Virus record (IMG/VR): IMGVR_UViG_2703719355_000024
Direction: 5' to 3' (one strand)
DNA from: a virus
Lineage: Duplodnaviria > Heunggongvirae > Uroviricota > Caudoviricetes
DNA length: 4,369 bases
Each line of letters begins with the position of its first letter. Positions within the stretch are counted from its first letter, which is position 1. Positions 1-3,093 of this stretch are shown piece after piece. Made by a program: the position numbers and the translations under genes. Below the pieces are notes generated by a model. It saw only the letters and a program-made list of their open reading frames with translations, made no database searches and had not been told where the DNA came from.

Positions 1-354
1 TTGTCTGGCGCTTTTCCAACCGCTGGCGCTATCGCAGGGTTCTCTGGAGGAGGTGTTATTGGAGCAATAGTTGGTGGCGCTGCAGGTGGAGCAATTGATG
101 CGATAGCAAAAGGATCGATAGCGAAATTATCCGCAACCAGAAGTGGTCGTTACGCTATTGAAAAGGCTGTTCAAGAGGCAACAAAGGCAGTTAAGGTTGG
201 GGCAAGTGATGGCGCATTAGCGGCGGCAGAACGCAGATTTATGGCAAATAAGGCCGCCGTAAAAGCAATACGCGAGGCACTAGGAAACGAAGAGTTCCAG
301 CGTTTAGCAAGGGCTGGAATTGTGGCATCGCTAAGCGGAATGGCACAGGAGTAA
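1..354 (+). CDS. 3' portion of a CDS that probably starts upstream of the window (5'-partial); hypothetical protein with a Gly/Ala-rich hydrophobic segment followed by an Ala/Lys/Glu-rich helical tail; by position possibly the last virion/ejection-protein gene of a P22-like late operon
   Basis: Open frame from base 1 to TAA at 352-354. Position 1 is TTG with no upstream context, so it is most likely an internal codon. Residues 5-35 (AFPTAGAIAGFSGGGVIGAIVGGAAGGAIDAIA) form a glycine-zipper-like hydrophobic stretch. The ejection-protein assignment is inference from synteny only. Confidence 0.5.
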   Translation: MSGAFPTAGAIAGFSGGGVIGAIVGGAAGGAIDAIAKGSIAKLSATRSGRYAIEKAVQEATKAVKVGASDGALAAAERRFMANKAAVKAIREALGNEEFQRLARAGIVASLSGMAQE

Positions 355-684
355 TTAGTCATCCATGGATGGATTGAGCTTATCTCGTGTTGATGTGGCA
401 ATTTTACCAACATTTTTCAACCAAGATTTTAAGAAGGATATGTCGTCCTTAATATCATGAATATCCTCATTCTTTATACGATCAACCTTATCCTCTAGGC
501 TCTCTATAGAACGCTCAATGCTAGACAGAGAGACTTTTAAGTCTCCTTGCTCACGTTCCAGTGAGGATTTGAGAGCACAATATTCGTTTTCTAGAATTCC
601 TATTTTTTTTGTTAGAGAGTGCATTCGATACTCATACACCAAACCAGAAACGACTAATGCAGCCAACAGAAACCATTCAAGCAC
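355..684 (-). CDS. hypothetical small membrane-anchored coiled-coil protein (109 aa, GTG start)
   Basis: Minus-strand ORF with GTG start at 684-682, preceded by a strong Shine-Dalgarno (minus strand AAGGAGG, 5-nt spacer). N-terminal hydrophobic segment LEWFLLAALVVSGLVY, then a charged heptad-like region (LENEYCALKSSLEREQGDLKVSLSSIERSIESLEDKVDRIKNE). Stop TAA is the complement of 355-357. Confidence 0.55.
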   Translation of the reverse strand: MLEWFLLAALVVSGLVYEYRMHSLTKKIGILENEYCALKSSLEREQGDLKVSLSSIERSIESLEDKVDRIKNEDIHDIKDDISFLKSWLKNVGKIATSTRDKLNPSMDD

Positions 685-825
685 ACCAACCTCCTTAGTT
701 TTGCGCAGGATACCAGATGATAATGTATTGGTGGAGTGGTGTGTGAAAACGTGTCAACGACAAACCATCCACAACTTGGACGAATGATTTAGCAAAAAGT
801 GCTATTTTTGGTGTTTGGTGTCATA

Positions 826-848
826 GAAAAGTGAATAGCTCACTTTTC
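826..848. repeat. perfect 9-bp inverted repeat GAAAAGTGA-N5-TCACTTTTC in the intergenic region; candidate operator or RNA hairpin
   Basis: Read directly: gaaaagtga (826-834), atagc (835-839), tcacttttc (840-848). No T-run follows on either strand, so it is not a classic intrinsic terminator. Confidence 0.6.
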
Positions 849-975
849 AACATTGCATGAAACTTGCAGGAAATGTGACATTACCTTATAGGTAACTTCG
901 GCGAAAATGCAGTAAATGTGAAACGTAATGGTTTAAACATGTCGCTAAAGTGGTTGTAAGTTAGCCTCCGAAGGA

Positions 976-1052
976 TTGCTGATAGCTTTGTTATAGTATT
1001 AAATGACATTTGACATAGTTGGATACTTAGCTGTGGCTATCAAGATGGAGGT
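976..1052 (+). promoter_or_regulatory. putative promoter/leader region for the Panacea operon (elements not confidently resolved)
   Basis: TTGACA at 1010-1015 inside a tandem TGACAT-T-TGACAT motif (1004-1016), but no good -10 at 17 +/- 1 bp. Alternative weak pair TTGCTG (976-981)-N17-TTAAAT (999-1004). SD GGAGG at 1047-1051. Confidence 0.3.
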
Positions 1053-1058
1053 GTGTTC

Positions 1059-1502
1059 ATGCTTACTTGTTTTGATGTCGCCGACTACTTCCTGTCGCGG
1101 TGTGACGAGGATAGCGGTGACACAATCTCTAATTTAAAATTACAAAAGCTTGTTTACTATGCTCAGGGTTTTTCATTGGCGTTGCTTGGCGAGCCTCTTT
1201 TTCAGAATAAGATGGAAGCTTGGATGCATGGCCCTGTTGTCCCTGAGCTTTATCGCCGTTATAAACAATATGGTAATGGCGCTATCCCTTCTCCAGAGTC
1301 TTTTGATGCTGAAAAATTCAGCGAAGAACAGTTAGAGCTATTAGAAGAAGTCTGGGATGTTTTTGGGCAATTTTCTGCCTGGAAACTGAGGAACATGACA
1401 CACGAAGAGTCACCATGGAGATCAAACTATATTGAGGGTGTTGGTGGTTCTGAAATTAGCTCTAAGGAGATGGCAGAGTACTTTGCAACTCGGATTAACT
1501 AA
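1059..1502 (+). CDS. Panacea-domain protein (DUF4065 / SocA-like antitoxin domain, GepA-type phage-associated protein); putative antitoxin or sensor component
   Basis: ATG at 1059 with GGAGG 7 nt upstream; the GTG at 1053 given in the ORF track sits on the SD and is less likely. The segment LKLQKLVYYAQGFSLALLGEPLFQNKMEAWMHGPVVPELYRRYKQYG matches the DUF4065/Panacea core pattern as I recall it. Stop TAA at 1500-1502. Confidence 0.75.
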   Translation: MLTCFDVADYFLSRCDEDSGDTISNLKLQKLVYYAQGFSLALLGEPLFQNKMEAWMHGPVVPELYRRYKQYGNGAIPSPESFDAEKFSEEQLELLEEVWDVFGQFSAWKLRNMTHEESPWRSNYIEGVGGSEISSKEMAEYFATRIN

Positions 1503-1506
1503 CGAG

Positions 1507-1926
1507 ATGGCAAGAAAATCTAAAAGGATTATCCCCCCTGCTGAATCTACAGGTAAGTTAAAGTTAGGGCCGCAGTCAGGGGGGAATTCAGATCAAAAGA
1601 AACCGAAATTTTCATTCTGTTACATCCAAAGCTCTCACTGCATAACGAAATGCCAAAAAGATGAGAAAGCTGGCTTAGCTGATAAATTATACAGATTAAG
1701 TCAACTAACATGGGCAGAGATTAAGCAGCAAGGTAGGCATAAGCTTGGATTTGAGAAGATTGCAAGGGGTGCCATTAAAGCAGGTATCCCCAGTCATATA
1801 ACGGAAGACGTAGATCATTTCTTGGCTTTTAGATTTGATGATTTGAAAGCCATGGTTGGTTATCGTCTTGGATCGACATTTTTTGTTATATGGCTTGATA
1901 GAGAGTTCAACCTATACAAGCACTAA
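1507..1926 (+). CDS. hypothetical 139-aa protein, candidate toxin/effector partner of the Panacea-domain protein
   Basis: ATG at 1507 lies 4 nt after the upstream stop, in the same orientation, with no strong SD of its own, suggesting translational coupling. The ORF-track start at 1432 is a TTG inside the upstream gene. Basic low-complexity N-terminus (MARKSKRIIPPAESTGKLKLGPQSGGNSDQKKPK), a Cys/His cluster (FSFCYIQSSHCITKC), and a beta-rich C-terminus. No family recognised. An intrinsic terminator follows immediately. Confidence 0.7.
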   Translation: MARKSKRIIPPAESTGKLKLGPQSGGNSDQKKPKFSFCYIQSSHCITKCQKDEKAGLADKLYRLSQLTWAEIKQQGRHKLGFEKIARGAIKAGIPSHITEDVDHFLAFRFDDLKAMVGYRLGSTFFVIWLDREFNLYKH

Positions 1927-1953
1927 TAAAACCCACCGTCAGGTGGGTTTTTT
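1927..1953. terminator. bidirectional rho-independent terminator shared by the convergent Panacea operon and the repressor gene
   Basis: AAAA (1927-1930), stem ACCCACC (1931-1937), loop GTCA (1938-1941), stem GGTGGGT (1942-1948), then a T-run from 1949. The flanking A-tract and T-tract allow function in both directions. The repressor stop codon (complement of 1939-1941) lies in the loop. Confidence 0.8.
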
Positions 1954-2748
1954 GTTGTCTCTGCTATCGAGAAGGAAGTTCAATTTTTCCTCTATTTCTT
2001 TAAGCTTGAGATAAAGTAATTCTTTCTCGGTTCTGGCATTTTCAGCTATAAAATCCTCTGCTTCATCCAACGTATTTTCGCTATCTCTTATCGAGTGCAG
2101 CGGGGTTTTTAACAAATCAATTTGTGCATGAATAGCTACAGCAATGATTTCCATATCATCACTGATTTCCAACATCGGGTACGCTGGATTAAGTGGTTTT
2201 AAGTAAAAATGCCCCTGATCTCTTATTAGTTGCTTGAAGGTGGTTTCAAATCCATTGCAACACAGCACGAAGTCTCCTGGTTTGGCCTGAATATCCGGAT
2301 CAAAGCAGACAGTGTAGCCATCCGGGAAGCTAATTCCAGAAGATGATGTCATTGAATGCCCTGTAACCACTAACGCAAATGCATTATTCCCGGCACATAA
2401 CGGGGCAGGGATAAAGTCTATAGGAGTAATGTCGCTTGGAAATTTTCCTCCTTTAGGATAGGAATTTGATAGGTGCGAGAATACGGGGATCTCTCTGACT
2501 GTTACCGTTCTCTGTATTGAGCTAACATCAGGCCCCTCACCAACACCGATAGCTAACCATTCTGTTGTTGTCCCTAAAGTAGCAGCCAGATTTCGTAACA
2601 CAGCGTCCCTTGGCTTGGAATCTCCTGCTTCATAGGCTGCTATTTGCCTTCTTACGATGCCAACCTTATCAGCTAACTGACCTTGAGTCAGCCCCATGGC
2701 AGCGCGAGCGATAGATATACGCTTAGGAAATGAATCGTCAAATTTCAT
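1939..2748 (-). CDS. lambda CI / P22 C2-type repressor: N-terminal HTH (XRE/Cro-C1 type) plus C-terminal S24 (LexA-like) peptidase domain, with an additional ~55-residue charged helical C-terminal extension
   Basis: Start taken as ATG at 2748-2746 with SD AAGGA 6 nt upstream; the ORF-track start at 2805 has no SD and would overlap the candidate divergent promoter. HTH: ISIARAAMGLTQGQLADKVGIVRRQIAAYEAG. S24 domain: GHSM (Ser nucleophile) and TFKQLIRDQGHFYLKPLNPAYPMLE, very close to lambda CI [26 protein letters not shown] and P22 C2 [24 protein letters not shown] as recalled from memory. Confidence 0.85.
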   Translation of the reverse strand: MKFDDSFPKRISIARAAMGLTQGQLADKVGIVRRQIAAYEAGDSKPRDAVLRNLAATLGTTTEWLAIGVGEGPDVSSIQRTVTVREIPVFSHLSNSYPKGGKFPSDITPIDFIPAPLCAGNNAFALVVTGHSMTSSSGISFPDGYTVCFDPDIQAKPGDFVLCCNGFETTFKQLIRDQGHFYLKPLNPAYPMLEISDDMEIIAVAIHAQIDLLKTPLHSIRDSENTLDEAEDFIAENARTEKELLYLKLKEIEEKLNFLLDSRDNKKPT

Positions 2749-2770
2749 ATGTGATCCTTTAAAGTTCACA

Positions 2771-2799
2771 TTGACACATTCAAATTCATGGCAAATAAT
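2771..2799 (+). promoter_or_regulatory. candidate sigma70 promoter for the arc-like/antirepressor operon (Pant analogue)
   Basis: TTGACA at 2771-2776, 17-bp spacer, AATAAT at 2794-2799, about 50 bp upstream of the arc-like start. Flanked by repeated TGTGA/TCACA half-sites that could be operators. Confidence 0.45.
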
Positions 2800-2848
2800 T
2801 GGCATGAGTTTGTGATGATGTGTGATTCAAAAATACATGAGGTGAATA

Positions 2849-3022: not shown

Positions 3023-3093
3023 AAATGTTGAAGCCCCAACTGCTGCAACAGTCAGGGCTTCGGTATCAACAAAACTTACGAGGTATTATTGAT

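Follow-up and report, generated by a model that had tools for sequence, protein, structure and literature searches.

An intergenic region of a P22-like prophage remnant is a mosaic that probably joins two reusable cis-acting modules

What is the role of a non-coding interval of some 370 bp that lies between two divergent phage genes and is densely set with repeats? The question is raised by positions 685-1058 of IMG/VR record IMGVR_UViG_2703719355_000024, a stretch of 4,369 nucleotides which is referred to here as the window and to which all positions relate. An initial annotation, made from the letters alone, had listed five inverted or direct repeats in this interval and had proposed that they were regulator-binding sites or a structured leader controlling one or both of the adjoining genes. 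The gap itself was confirmed. It separates a leftward gene from the rightward panA gene (Table 1) and contains no credible open reading frame. All five repeats were likewise found in the sequence with coordinates right to ±1 nt; the pair of direct repeats, for instance, was present and had been placed 1 nt off.

The whole window was recovered as a 100% identical segment of the chromosome of E. coli Z1323CEC0010. Because this segment is flanked by lambdoid tail-fibre and NleG genes on one side and by dacD on the other, it is regarded as the remnant of a P22-like prophage, and the window is the ant moron of this remnant. It follows the P22-like order gene 16, small gene, PanA, toxin partner, repressor, Arc, sar RNA, Ant and tailspike, with the Arc-like gene, the sar RNA, Ant and the start of the tailspike gene at its right end. 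PanA of the window matched SocA_Panacea only (residues 28-120 of 147), and a predicted intrinsic terminator-like hairpin lies 3' of the cassette at 1928-1951. The ant moron of P22-like phages is in rapid flux (Villafane et al., PMC2629481), and the cargo of the cassette was variable in presence and absence among these phages.

Table 1. Features of the window, in window coordinates
Feature	Position	Strand	Remark
Gene-16 ejection protein, C-terminus	1-354		
hkcB-like gene, 109 aa	355-684	-	PHROG 5962
34-bp cassette of the sieA-position gene	682-715	-	shared start region
GTG start	684-682	-	
Shine-Dalgarno AAGGAGG	696-690	-	
Extended -10-like TGgTATCCT	715-707	-	predicted
Alternative promoter, -10 TATCAT and -35 TTCACA	722-717 and 747-742	-	predicted
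Portable non-coding upstream element and promoter	760-1004	+	5'-truncated copy
Core GCAAAAAGTGCTATT	792-806		overlaps CAAAAA-N6-TTTTTG
CAAAAA-N6-TTTTTG inverted repeat	793-810		
Perfect 9-bp inverted repeat GAAAAGTGA/TCACTTTTC	826-834/840-848		
Direct repeat TGCAGGAAATGTGA/TGCAGTAAATGTGA	865-878/908-921		13/14 match
TTACC-N5-GGTAA dyad	881-895		
Dyad followed by block CTTCGGCGAAAA	881-907		
σ70 promoter, -35 TTGCTG and -10 TATTAA/TTAAAT	976-1004 (976-981 and 997-1004)	+	predicted
TGACAT-T-TGACAT tandem	1004-1016	+	
Leader of the PanA cassette	1005-1058	+	
Leader dyad TAGC-TGTG-GCTA	1028-1039	+	
Shine-Dalgarno GGAGG	1047-1051	+	
ATG start	1059	+	
PanA, Panacea domain	1059-1502	+	Pfam E=1.8e-24
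Toxin partner of PanA, 139 aa	1507-1926		
LexA/CI-like repressor	1939-2751	-	
sar RNA	3026-3092		Rfam 62 bits

BLAST comparison with phages revealed sharp starts and stops of homology to different phages, and these junctions show that the 374 bp are mosaic. Three parts can be told apart: a minus-strand part from 682 to about 747, a plus-strand part from about 760 to 1004, and 1005-1058. Homology to P22 and HK620 stops at 715, where the hkcC gene of these phages starts. Further breaks were located at 737 (phage 611R6 and E. coli Z1323CEC0001), at 855 (viral contig L143) and at 913 (E. coli P15-25). The possibility that the region holds a remnant of hkcC or of another gene was considered and dropped, no significant similarity being detected. 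Two alleles of PanA, types A and B, differ by 1.5% in 716-913, by 12% in 914-1058 and by 28-32% (depending on the alignment) in the panA gene, and a third allele, found in loci L206 and L238, is an A/B hybrid. Within the P22-like phages 716-913 is nearly invariant, in a set with almost no diversity; locus L022 carries 9 substitutions in the 198 bp of 716-913 as against 6 in the 444 bp of panA. Recombinational homogenisation beside the 34-bp linker discussed below would appear to fit this near-identity as well as selection does.

The left part, 682 to about 747, seems to be a shared expression cassette with a putative promoter. Its first 34 bp (682-715) were 97-100% identical in P22, HK620, epsilon34 and more than 120 viral contigs. 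In P22-pbi 33 of the 34 positions are identical, and identity to HK620 amounts to 98% over 600-715. When viral contigs were scanned with this 34-bp boundary sequence and the loci collected earlier were added, at least 132 loci were obtained, in which at least 14 unrelated left genes were freely combined with at least 12 unrelated right-hand sequences. The products of the left genes range from 62 to 164 aa; all of these genes lie on the minus strand and use one common GTG and Shine-Dalgarno sequence. Most of their N-termini are hydrophobic, and SieA of P22 is among them. The position of the cassette was tested as well: the gene-16 homologue immediately precedes it on the other strand, and the Immunity I genes and the tailspike follow. 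The 'boundary sequence' annotations of CUS-3 were considered and rejected, as they are located elsewhere in the CUS-3 genome.

Two promoters can be proposed for this cassette. The extended -10-like TGgTATCCT lies about 7 nt before an A-run, which would result in a predicted leader of about 16 nt. The alternative pair of hexamers (TATCAT and TTCACA) has the highest promoter score within 685-1058 and ranks ninth among the 8684 positions of the window. A hexamer nnTCAT adjoins the boundary in 12 of 12 right-hand classes among the matches listed, and in the record of P22-pbi PsieA is annotated directly beside the equivalent of the 34-bp cassette. PsieA is termed 'putative' in PMC10461980. We propose that the left module comprises a short promoter, a leader of about 16-26 nt, a strong Shine-Dalgarno sequence and a GTG, which together would serve at least 14 unrelated small genes. 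The identity of the 34 bp may double as a homologous-recombination linker for the swapping of genes. The idea of one control for both genes is not supported, since the divergent membrane-protein gene has a separate and very short cassette of its own.

The right part, from about 760 to 1004, is a portable element that occurs upstream of different genes. Divergent copies were sought via relatives of PanA, and two loci (L302 and L273) whose PanA is 67-68% identical to that of the window carried the element within tail gene clusters of lambdoid siphoviruses. They share only islands with the window, namely 792-806, 881-907, 975-1004 (ATTGCT...TATTAAAT) and the leader from 1028 onwards; in the second island TTACC-N5-GGTAA has a different spacer and is followed by TTCnGCGAAAA. 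Pattern scans built from the islands yielded about 50 further lambdoid loci in viral contigs, further copies in metagenomes, and phage HK639. A search of complete E. coli genomes for the lambdoid-type element gave no match. Because the first 60-100 bp of the lambdoid element are missing from the window, the copy studied here may be only partly functional.

The element precedes at least eight unrelated two-gene cassettes in lambdoid and P22-like phages. The cargo includes three PanA families with four different partners, that is the family of the window and two others whose partners are different; a pair of a small protein and Fic/Doc (25 loci, Pfam E=2e-12); a YafO toxin (Pfam E=1.3e-20) together with a protein of about 190 aa; and at least three cassettes of unknown function. 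At least three different places in tail gene clusters are occupied. The element is located in the K/I interval, the interval between tape-measure or lipoprotein genes and M, and the P22-type ant moron. A full-text literature search for the motifs returned nothing relevant, and as far as checked the element is undescribed so far.

The conserved parts of the element were studied in three alignments (A5 with 25 copies, A6 with 23 lambdoid copies and A7 with 37 lambdoid copies). Most lambdoid copies had been retrieved by exact-match patterns with the core or the dyad inside, so that the 'invariance' of these two blocks among them is partly built in. Evidence that is free of this seed bias comes from the PanA relatives L302 and L273, from HK639 and from a scan with a core-free pattern. 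L302, L273 and HK639, which had not been retrieved via the core motif, carry the core GCAAAAAGTGCTATT with 100% identity. In the independent core-free scan GCAAAAAGTGC was present in 27 of 27 loci, with the exact 15-mer in 26 of them and GCAAAAAGTGCgATc in one. The window and nearly all lambdoid copies and lineages retain the arms TTACC and GGTAA around a spacer that takes at least nine forms (TGAGG, TCTGG, CCAGG, TGATA, TTTGA, TTAGA, TAAGG, CGTGG and TTATA). Constant arms with a free spacer are the pattern expected of a site for a protein dimer and not of an RNA hairpin. Other conserved blocks are TTCnnCGAAA and, in the lambdoid copies, TCGTCGAAC. In the window some 115-130 bp separate the dyad from the predicted transcription start downstream of it, and the conserved blocks as a whole would lie 100-215 bp upstream of this start, which is far for simple σ70 regulation.

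Downstream of these blocks TTGCTx-17-TTAAAT is the sole promoter-like element that stands at one column in 25 of 25 aligned copies. The -35 sequence ATTGCT is kept in every cargo class and is followed after 15-17 nt by a -10 sequence that varies and reads TATTAA, TATAAA, TATATT or TATTAG. The match to the consensus gives the window allele a plus-strand promoter score of only 5.2-5.7. No dyad overlapping the promoter at 976-1004 was found in the window; in another promoter variant TATAGC-TG-GCTATA, a dyad related to that of the leader at 1028-1039, overlaps the -10. Between cargo classes homology stops just past the -35 or at the -10, and the 5' leaders are cargo-specific; among PanA loci with 67-68% protein identity 1028-1088 is 93-95% identical. 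A search of the region for intrinsic terminators revealed no hairpin with a T-run, with one weak candidate on the minus strand (783-765). As the shared homology ends at the promoter, the element most likely works as DNA, by controlling transcription. We consider it rather probable that two reusable cis-acting modules are fused in the intergenic region and that the right-hand element acts at the DNA level via common binding proteins.

It might be argued that the conserved blocks have no regulatory role and that the element is a recombination linker for the exchange of cassettes, in which the repeats are passengers. The 34-bp boundary does appear clearly to act in this way. The junctions at 737, 855 and 913 and the A/B hybrid allele point to recombination within the element, divergence climbs gradually with distance from the linker, and the end of inter-cargo homology just past the -35 would also be in keeping with exchange. 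However, a linker leaves unexplained why constant TTACC and GGTAA arms surround a free 5-nt spacer, why a core of 11-15 nt survives amid flanks that cannot be aligned, and why a promoter-like element is held at a fixed position. We therefore regard such a passive role of the blocks as unlikely.

The five repeats from which the question arose behave differently from one another. Their significance was estimated from 1000 dinucleotide-preserving shuffles of the 374 bp (685-1058). A perfect inverted repeat of at least 9 bp appeared in 12 of the 1000 shuffles (p≈0.01), the observed number of inverted repeats of at least 6 bp was reached in 16 of 1000, and a 13/14 direct repeat arose in 13 of 1000 (p≈0.01). 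The 9-bp inverted repeat and the direct repeat are modestly above chance. A tandem 6-mer was found in 220 of the 1000 shuffles (p≈0.22), and the TGACAT tandem is therefore not significant. The region had also been called AT-rich. Its G+C content is 38.8%; the window as a whole has 42.7% and the adjoining gene at 355-684 has 37.9%. Since the value is so near to that of the adjacent gene, AT-richness is no distinguishing property.

That the repeats act as one unit was not supported, three of them (the 9-bp inverted repeat, the TGACAT tandem and the direct repeat) being lineage- or allele-specific. The 9-bp inverted repeat is present in P22-like copies, with the non-compensating changes A830C and C841T in L206, L238 and L143. 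At the place equivalent to 826-848 most lambdoid copies have a dyad ATAGGC-N3-GCCTAT and some lineages have none. A scan of a genome collection with the pattern of the 9-bp repeat produced chance matches only, in unrelated phyla, and two viral matches (L014 and L018) were attributed to chance too. The direct repeat, TGCAG(G/T)AAATGTGA on the plus strand, is confined to P22-like copies. Its first copy overlaps a dyad AATGT-g-ACATT (872-882), the position of which is taken by AATAGTttACTATT in most lambdoid copies and by GTGATTctgcAATCAC or GTTGATCAAC in other lineages, with no palindrome in three lineages. The evidence for variable dyads at fixed positions is mixed, some lineages being without any. 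The TGACAT tandem coincides with the predicted transcription start or follows it closely. TGCAAC-T-TGACAC stands in its place in the PanA module of type B, and other cargo classes lack the tandem. The pairing of 793-810 is not conserved, as in most lambdoid copies the partner of CAAAAA is a TTTTTG that lies upstream. Conservation across related phages was thus borne out for 881-895, the best-conserved dyad of the element, and not for 826-848, the direct repeat or 1004-1016. The view of the interval as a divergent, composite control region is supported. What survives of the suggestion of regulator-binding sites concerns the TTACC/GGTAA arms, which are constant while their spacer is free, and the left arm and loop of 793-810, which fall within the conserved core.

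Short palindromes that recur at fixed positions with sequences differing between lineages might instead suggest that the element acts as RNA. Candidates are a small RNA, a long leader with secondary structure, or a signal for processing or insulation carried by the read-through transcript of the late operon during lytic growth. Late transcription does cross the ant moron in P22 (PMC2629481), and a TAAAAT -10-like hexamer is found at the left end of the lambdoid copies; the copy in the window lacks the left end at which such a transcript would start. Rfam gave no match at E up to 1-5 for 685-1058 or for one lambdoid copy, and no membership in a known class of structured RNA (Rfam family, riboswitch, small RNA or leader) was found. 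Folding z-scores of -0.4 to -1.7 for 716-913 on both strands, 810-1075 and 1000-1075 were not notable. In the P22-like set, which is nearly without diversity, no base pair had changed on both sides. RNAalifold produced hardly any consensus structure: A5 gave -3.1 kcal/mol and A6 -17.3 kcal/mol, and the covariation terms (-0.86 and +0.07 kcal/mol, respectively) were negligible. Moreover, the best-conserved dyad keeps the sequence of its arms and does not covary, and the spacers of several dyads measure 0-2 nt, too short for hairpin loops. A function as RNA is thus quite improbable, and the structured leader of the initial annotation meets the further difficulty that transcription is predicted to start only downstream of the conserved part.

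Coding capacity did not emerge either. Neither a start codon nor a reading frame is conserved among copies of the element, substitutions are without 3-nt periodicity (with variable sites falling evenly on all three codon positions), and blastx against all ORFs of the fetched loci matched only the same region in homologous loci. Several small frames had been candidates: a 9-codon ORF at 717-746, a 28-codon frame from 701 and a 42-aa minus-strand ORF at 881-1009 in the window, and in lambdoid copies a 19-codon hydrophobic frame and an open frame of about 50 codons. All were rejected: starts were lost, some alleles contained stops, frames shifted, and codon periodicity was lacking.

If the conserved blocks bind protein, regulators encoded in the window come to mind. 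The CI-like and Arc-like proteins had been proposed as the binding partners, and the repeats might equally be operators of an autoregulating PanA, autoregulation being frequent in type II antitoxins (PMC8832971). TGTGA occurs three times in 685-1058, four times in the 97-bp intergenic region between the CI-like and Arc-like genes and nine times in the window, but the overall count is not above chance. AATGTGAA is shared between 915-922 and a palindrome on the CI side (2749-2771). Identical copies of 716-1058 were nevertheless found beside Mnt/Arc-type immunity regions without this CI-like gene, and lambdoid tail clusters carry the element with no such regulators nearby. Across loci the sites do not co-occur with the CI-like or Arc-like regulator gene, so that CI operators made up of the shared TGTGA and AATGTGAA were rejected. 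As for PanA, N-terminal DNA-binding domains are present in only some members of the family (PMC8832971), and that of the window is a bare Panacea domain without a helix-turn-helix. The blocks also precede cargo without PanA. In place of a palindrome on the -35/-10 that co-varies with the antitoxin, as in a type II autoregulatory operator, we found dyads common to unrelated first genes. It is very doubtful, then, that the repeats are operators for these local proteins. Comparison with the consensus sequences of CRP, σ54, σE, Fis, Lrp, SlyA and CpxR gave no convincing fit.

We return to the fusion of two cis-acting modules as the preferred explanation. The right-hand module would consist of an upstream control region and the σ70 promoter of a moron with PanA and its toxin partner. 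The conserved blocks would be sites for one or more DNA-binding proteins common to these phages or to their hosts, and these proteins would control how the prophage expresses the cassette. Around the blocks, the variable dyads may be lineage-specific additions.

How does this arrangement compare with known systems? PsieA and the start region of sieA lie in the ant moron of P22 (Villafane et al. 2008, PMC2629481; Leavitt et al. 2024, PMC10883804). The left module agrees with them in its place in the interval between gene 16 and immunity I, in the leftward gene, in the GTG start and in 33 of 34 positions over 682-715. In P22, 85 bp upstream of sieA are enough for function, and the sieA position is where prophage-expressed genes lie. 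The gene found here, in contrast, is hkcB-like and not sieA, and to the right of 715 P22 has hkcC and not this element. The use of the 34 bp as a shared cassette by at least 14 gene families is an observation of our own which we did not find in the literature checked.

Lambdoid morons, in the Juhala/Hendrix concept as it is cited in PMC2629481, are independently expressed inserts with their own promoter and terminator. The cassette described here resembles them as an insert among conserved late genes with a predicted σ70 promoter, a predicted terminator-like hairpin (1928-1951) and cargo unrelated to virion assembly. The promoters of morons are generally compact, however, and each moron has its own, whereas here about 200 bp of conserved non-coding DNA lie upstream of the -35 and are found with at least eight cargo types in two phage morphotypes. 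The operator of MqsA in mqsRA, an autoregulated type II promoter, is TAACC-N5-GGTTA. Like the dyad at 881-895 it has 5-bp arms and a 5-nt spacer and is situated upstream of a toxin-antitoxin operon, and TTACC resembles TAACC. The dyad studied here is nevertheless far upstream instead of on the promoter, and no MqsA-like antitoxin is encoded here. Because the dyad is common to cassettes with unrelated antitoxins, a binder encoded by the cargo is unlikely. Finally, Rousset et al. reportedly described in 2022 defence hotspots of the P2/P4 type with conserved flanking genes. Variable two-gene defence or toxin-antitoxin cargo at a fixed place in temperate phages, with conserved neighbouring DNA, is common to both systems; the conserved flank here is instead a non-coding element that moves with its cargo to different positions.

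The switching of prophage toxin-antitoxin and defence cassettes is usually studied system by system. Here cassettes of unrelated proteins, found in two phage morphotypes and at several positions in the genome, have a non-coding head in common. The 11-nt core and the 15-bp dyad are candidate sites that could be used as bait for a regulator, and scanning for the element may uncover further cargo. The 34-bp cassette, for its part, marks a slot for small membrane proteins such as SieA and could lead to a catalogue of candidate superinfection-exclusion genes. It is possible, though we put it forward only tentatively and with some doubt, that the element of about 250 bp is a common cis-regulatory head which places at least eight unrelated cassettes under one regulator of TTACC-N5-GGTAA and/or GCAAAAAGTGC. 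In that case the regulator would be encoded by the host or would be a widely conserved phage protein, and the defence morons of P22-like and lambda-like prophages would form a regulon switched by a single signal.

At the place where P22 carries mnt, the window encodes a LexA/CI-like repressor instead. The 97-bp intergenic region between this gene and the Arc-like gene contains four of the nine copies of TGTGA in the window, together with a near-palindrome and the best promoter match of the whole window. The TGTGA motifs and the near-palindrome are probably the operators of the LexA/CI-like repressor. Further along, a sar antisense RNA overlaps the gap that separates the Arc-like gene from ant. 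Since the match at this gap is clear, antisense control of ant of the P22 type appears to have been retained.

Features of the window and of the Doc-type leaders (positions are those of the window)
Feature	Position	Strand	Description
Mini-ORF	908-916		ATG CAG TAA, 2 codons
PanA partner	1507-1926		139-140 aa; PHROG 8366
LexA/CI-like repressor	1939-2848		HTH_3 + Peptidase_S24; includes adjoining intergenic region
Near-palindrome	2749-2771		ATGTGATCCTT/AAAGTTCACAT
Predicted promoter	2771-2799		TTGACA-17-AATAAT
sar antisense RNA	3026-3092	minus	Rfam RF00262, 62.3 bits, E=1.3e-11
Doc-type leader hairpin			CCACT-loop-AGTGG
Doc-type leader hairpin			GGATGT-GTTT-ACATCC

Homologues of the PanA partner sit behind three PanA alleles (window, L006, L302 and L273). 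The partner gave no Pfam match, and a search against PADLOC returned a weak match to NsnC (E=5.9e-6). One viral contig, sharing 99.9% identity with the window, encodes a PanA shortened to 141 aa and followed by a 194-aa ORF (MKDQITHPPDN...; L034 and L257, about 495 nt past the promoter), which looks like the result of an insertion or rearrangement within the cassette.

The portable element that precedes the toxin-antitoxin cassettes also occurs with a variant promoter serving several cargo types, in which a palindrome, TATAGC-TG-GCTATA, overlaps the -10 sequence (TATAAA) approximately 130-160 nt past the TTACC dyad (L376, L381-L384, L387-L388, L393, L396 and L399). The PanA leader of the window has a related TAGC-TGTG-GCTA at 1028-1039, and the type B allele has ATAGC-TGCG-GCTAT. 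The leader of Doc-type cassettes (L333 5711-5830 and other loci) measures about 100 nt and contains two small hairpins, in which variation falls in the loops or at wobble positions. Because the ATG initially called for the upstream small protein is not conserved, this protein probably begins at the later MGHALKK.

The window corresponds to a P22-like prophage remnant of about 4.4 kb (L007 3286-7654) that spans from the end of gene 16 to the start of the tailspike gene. In E. coli Z1323CEC0010 it is flanked by lambdoid tail-fibre genes, NleG effector genes and dacD. In sister strains the remnant is shorter and begins at window position 737, immediately past the terminator of a tail-fibre gene. 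In E. coli P15-25 (L005 3192-3350) the ATG CAG of the mini-ORF opens a coiled-coil-like ORF of 52 codons, because the recombination junction (913/914) immediately follows these two codons.

At the sieA position, the otherwise different small genes of left-gene classes L3 and L6 share identical C-terminal residues, ATSTRDKLNPSMDD (window 355-400), encoded directly after the stop codon of gene 16. This common C-terminus points to another recombination joint, located at the slot's 3' end. A different right-hand sequence follows the 34-bp boundary in phage vB_EcoP-611R6 (L130 2620-2745), with its own repeated ATGCAAGCA/TGCTTGCAT motifs upstream of a 322-aa gene. Every right-hand module seems to bring control sites of its own.
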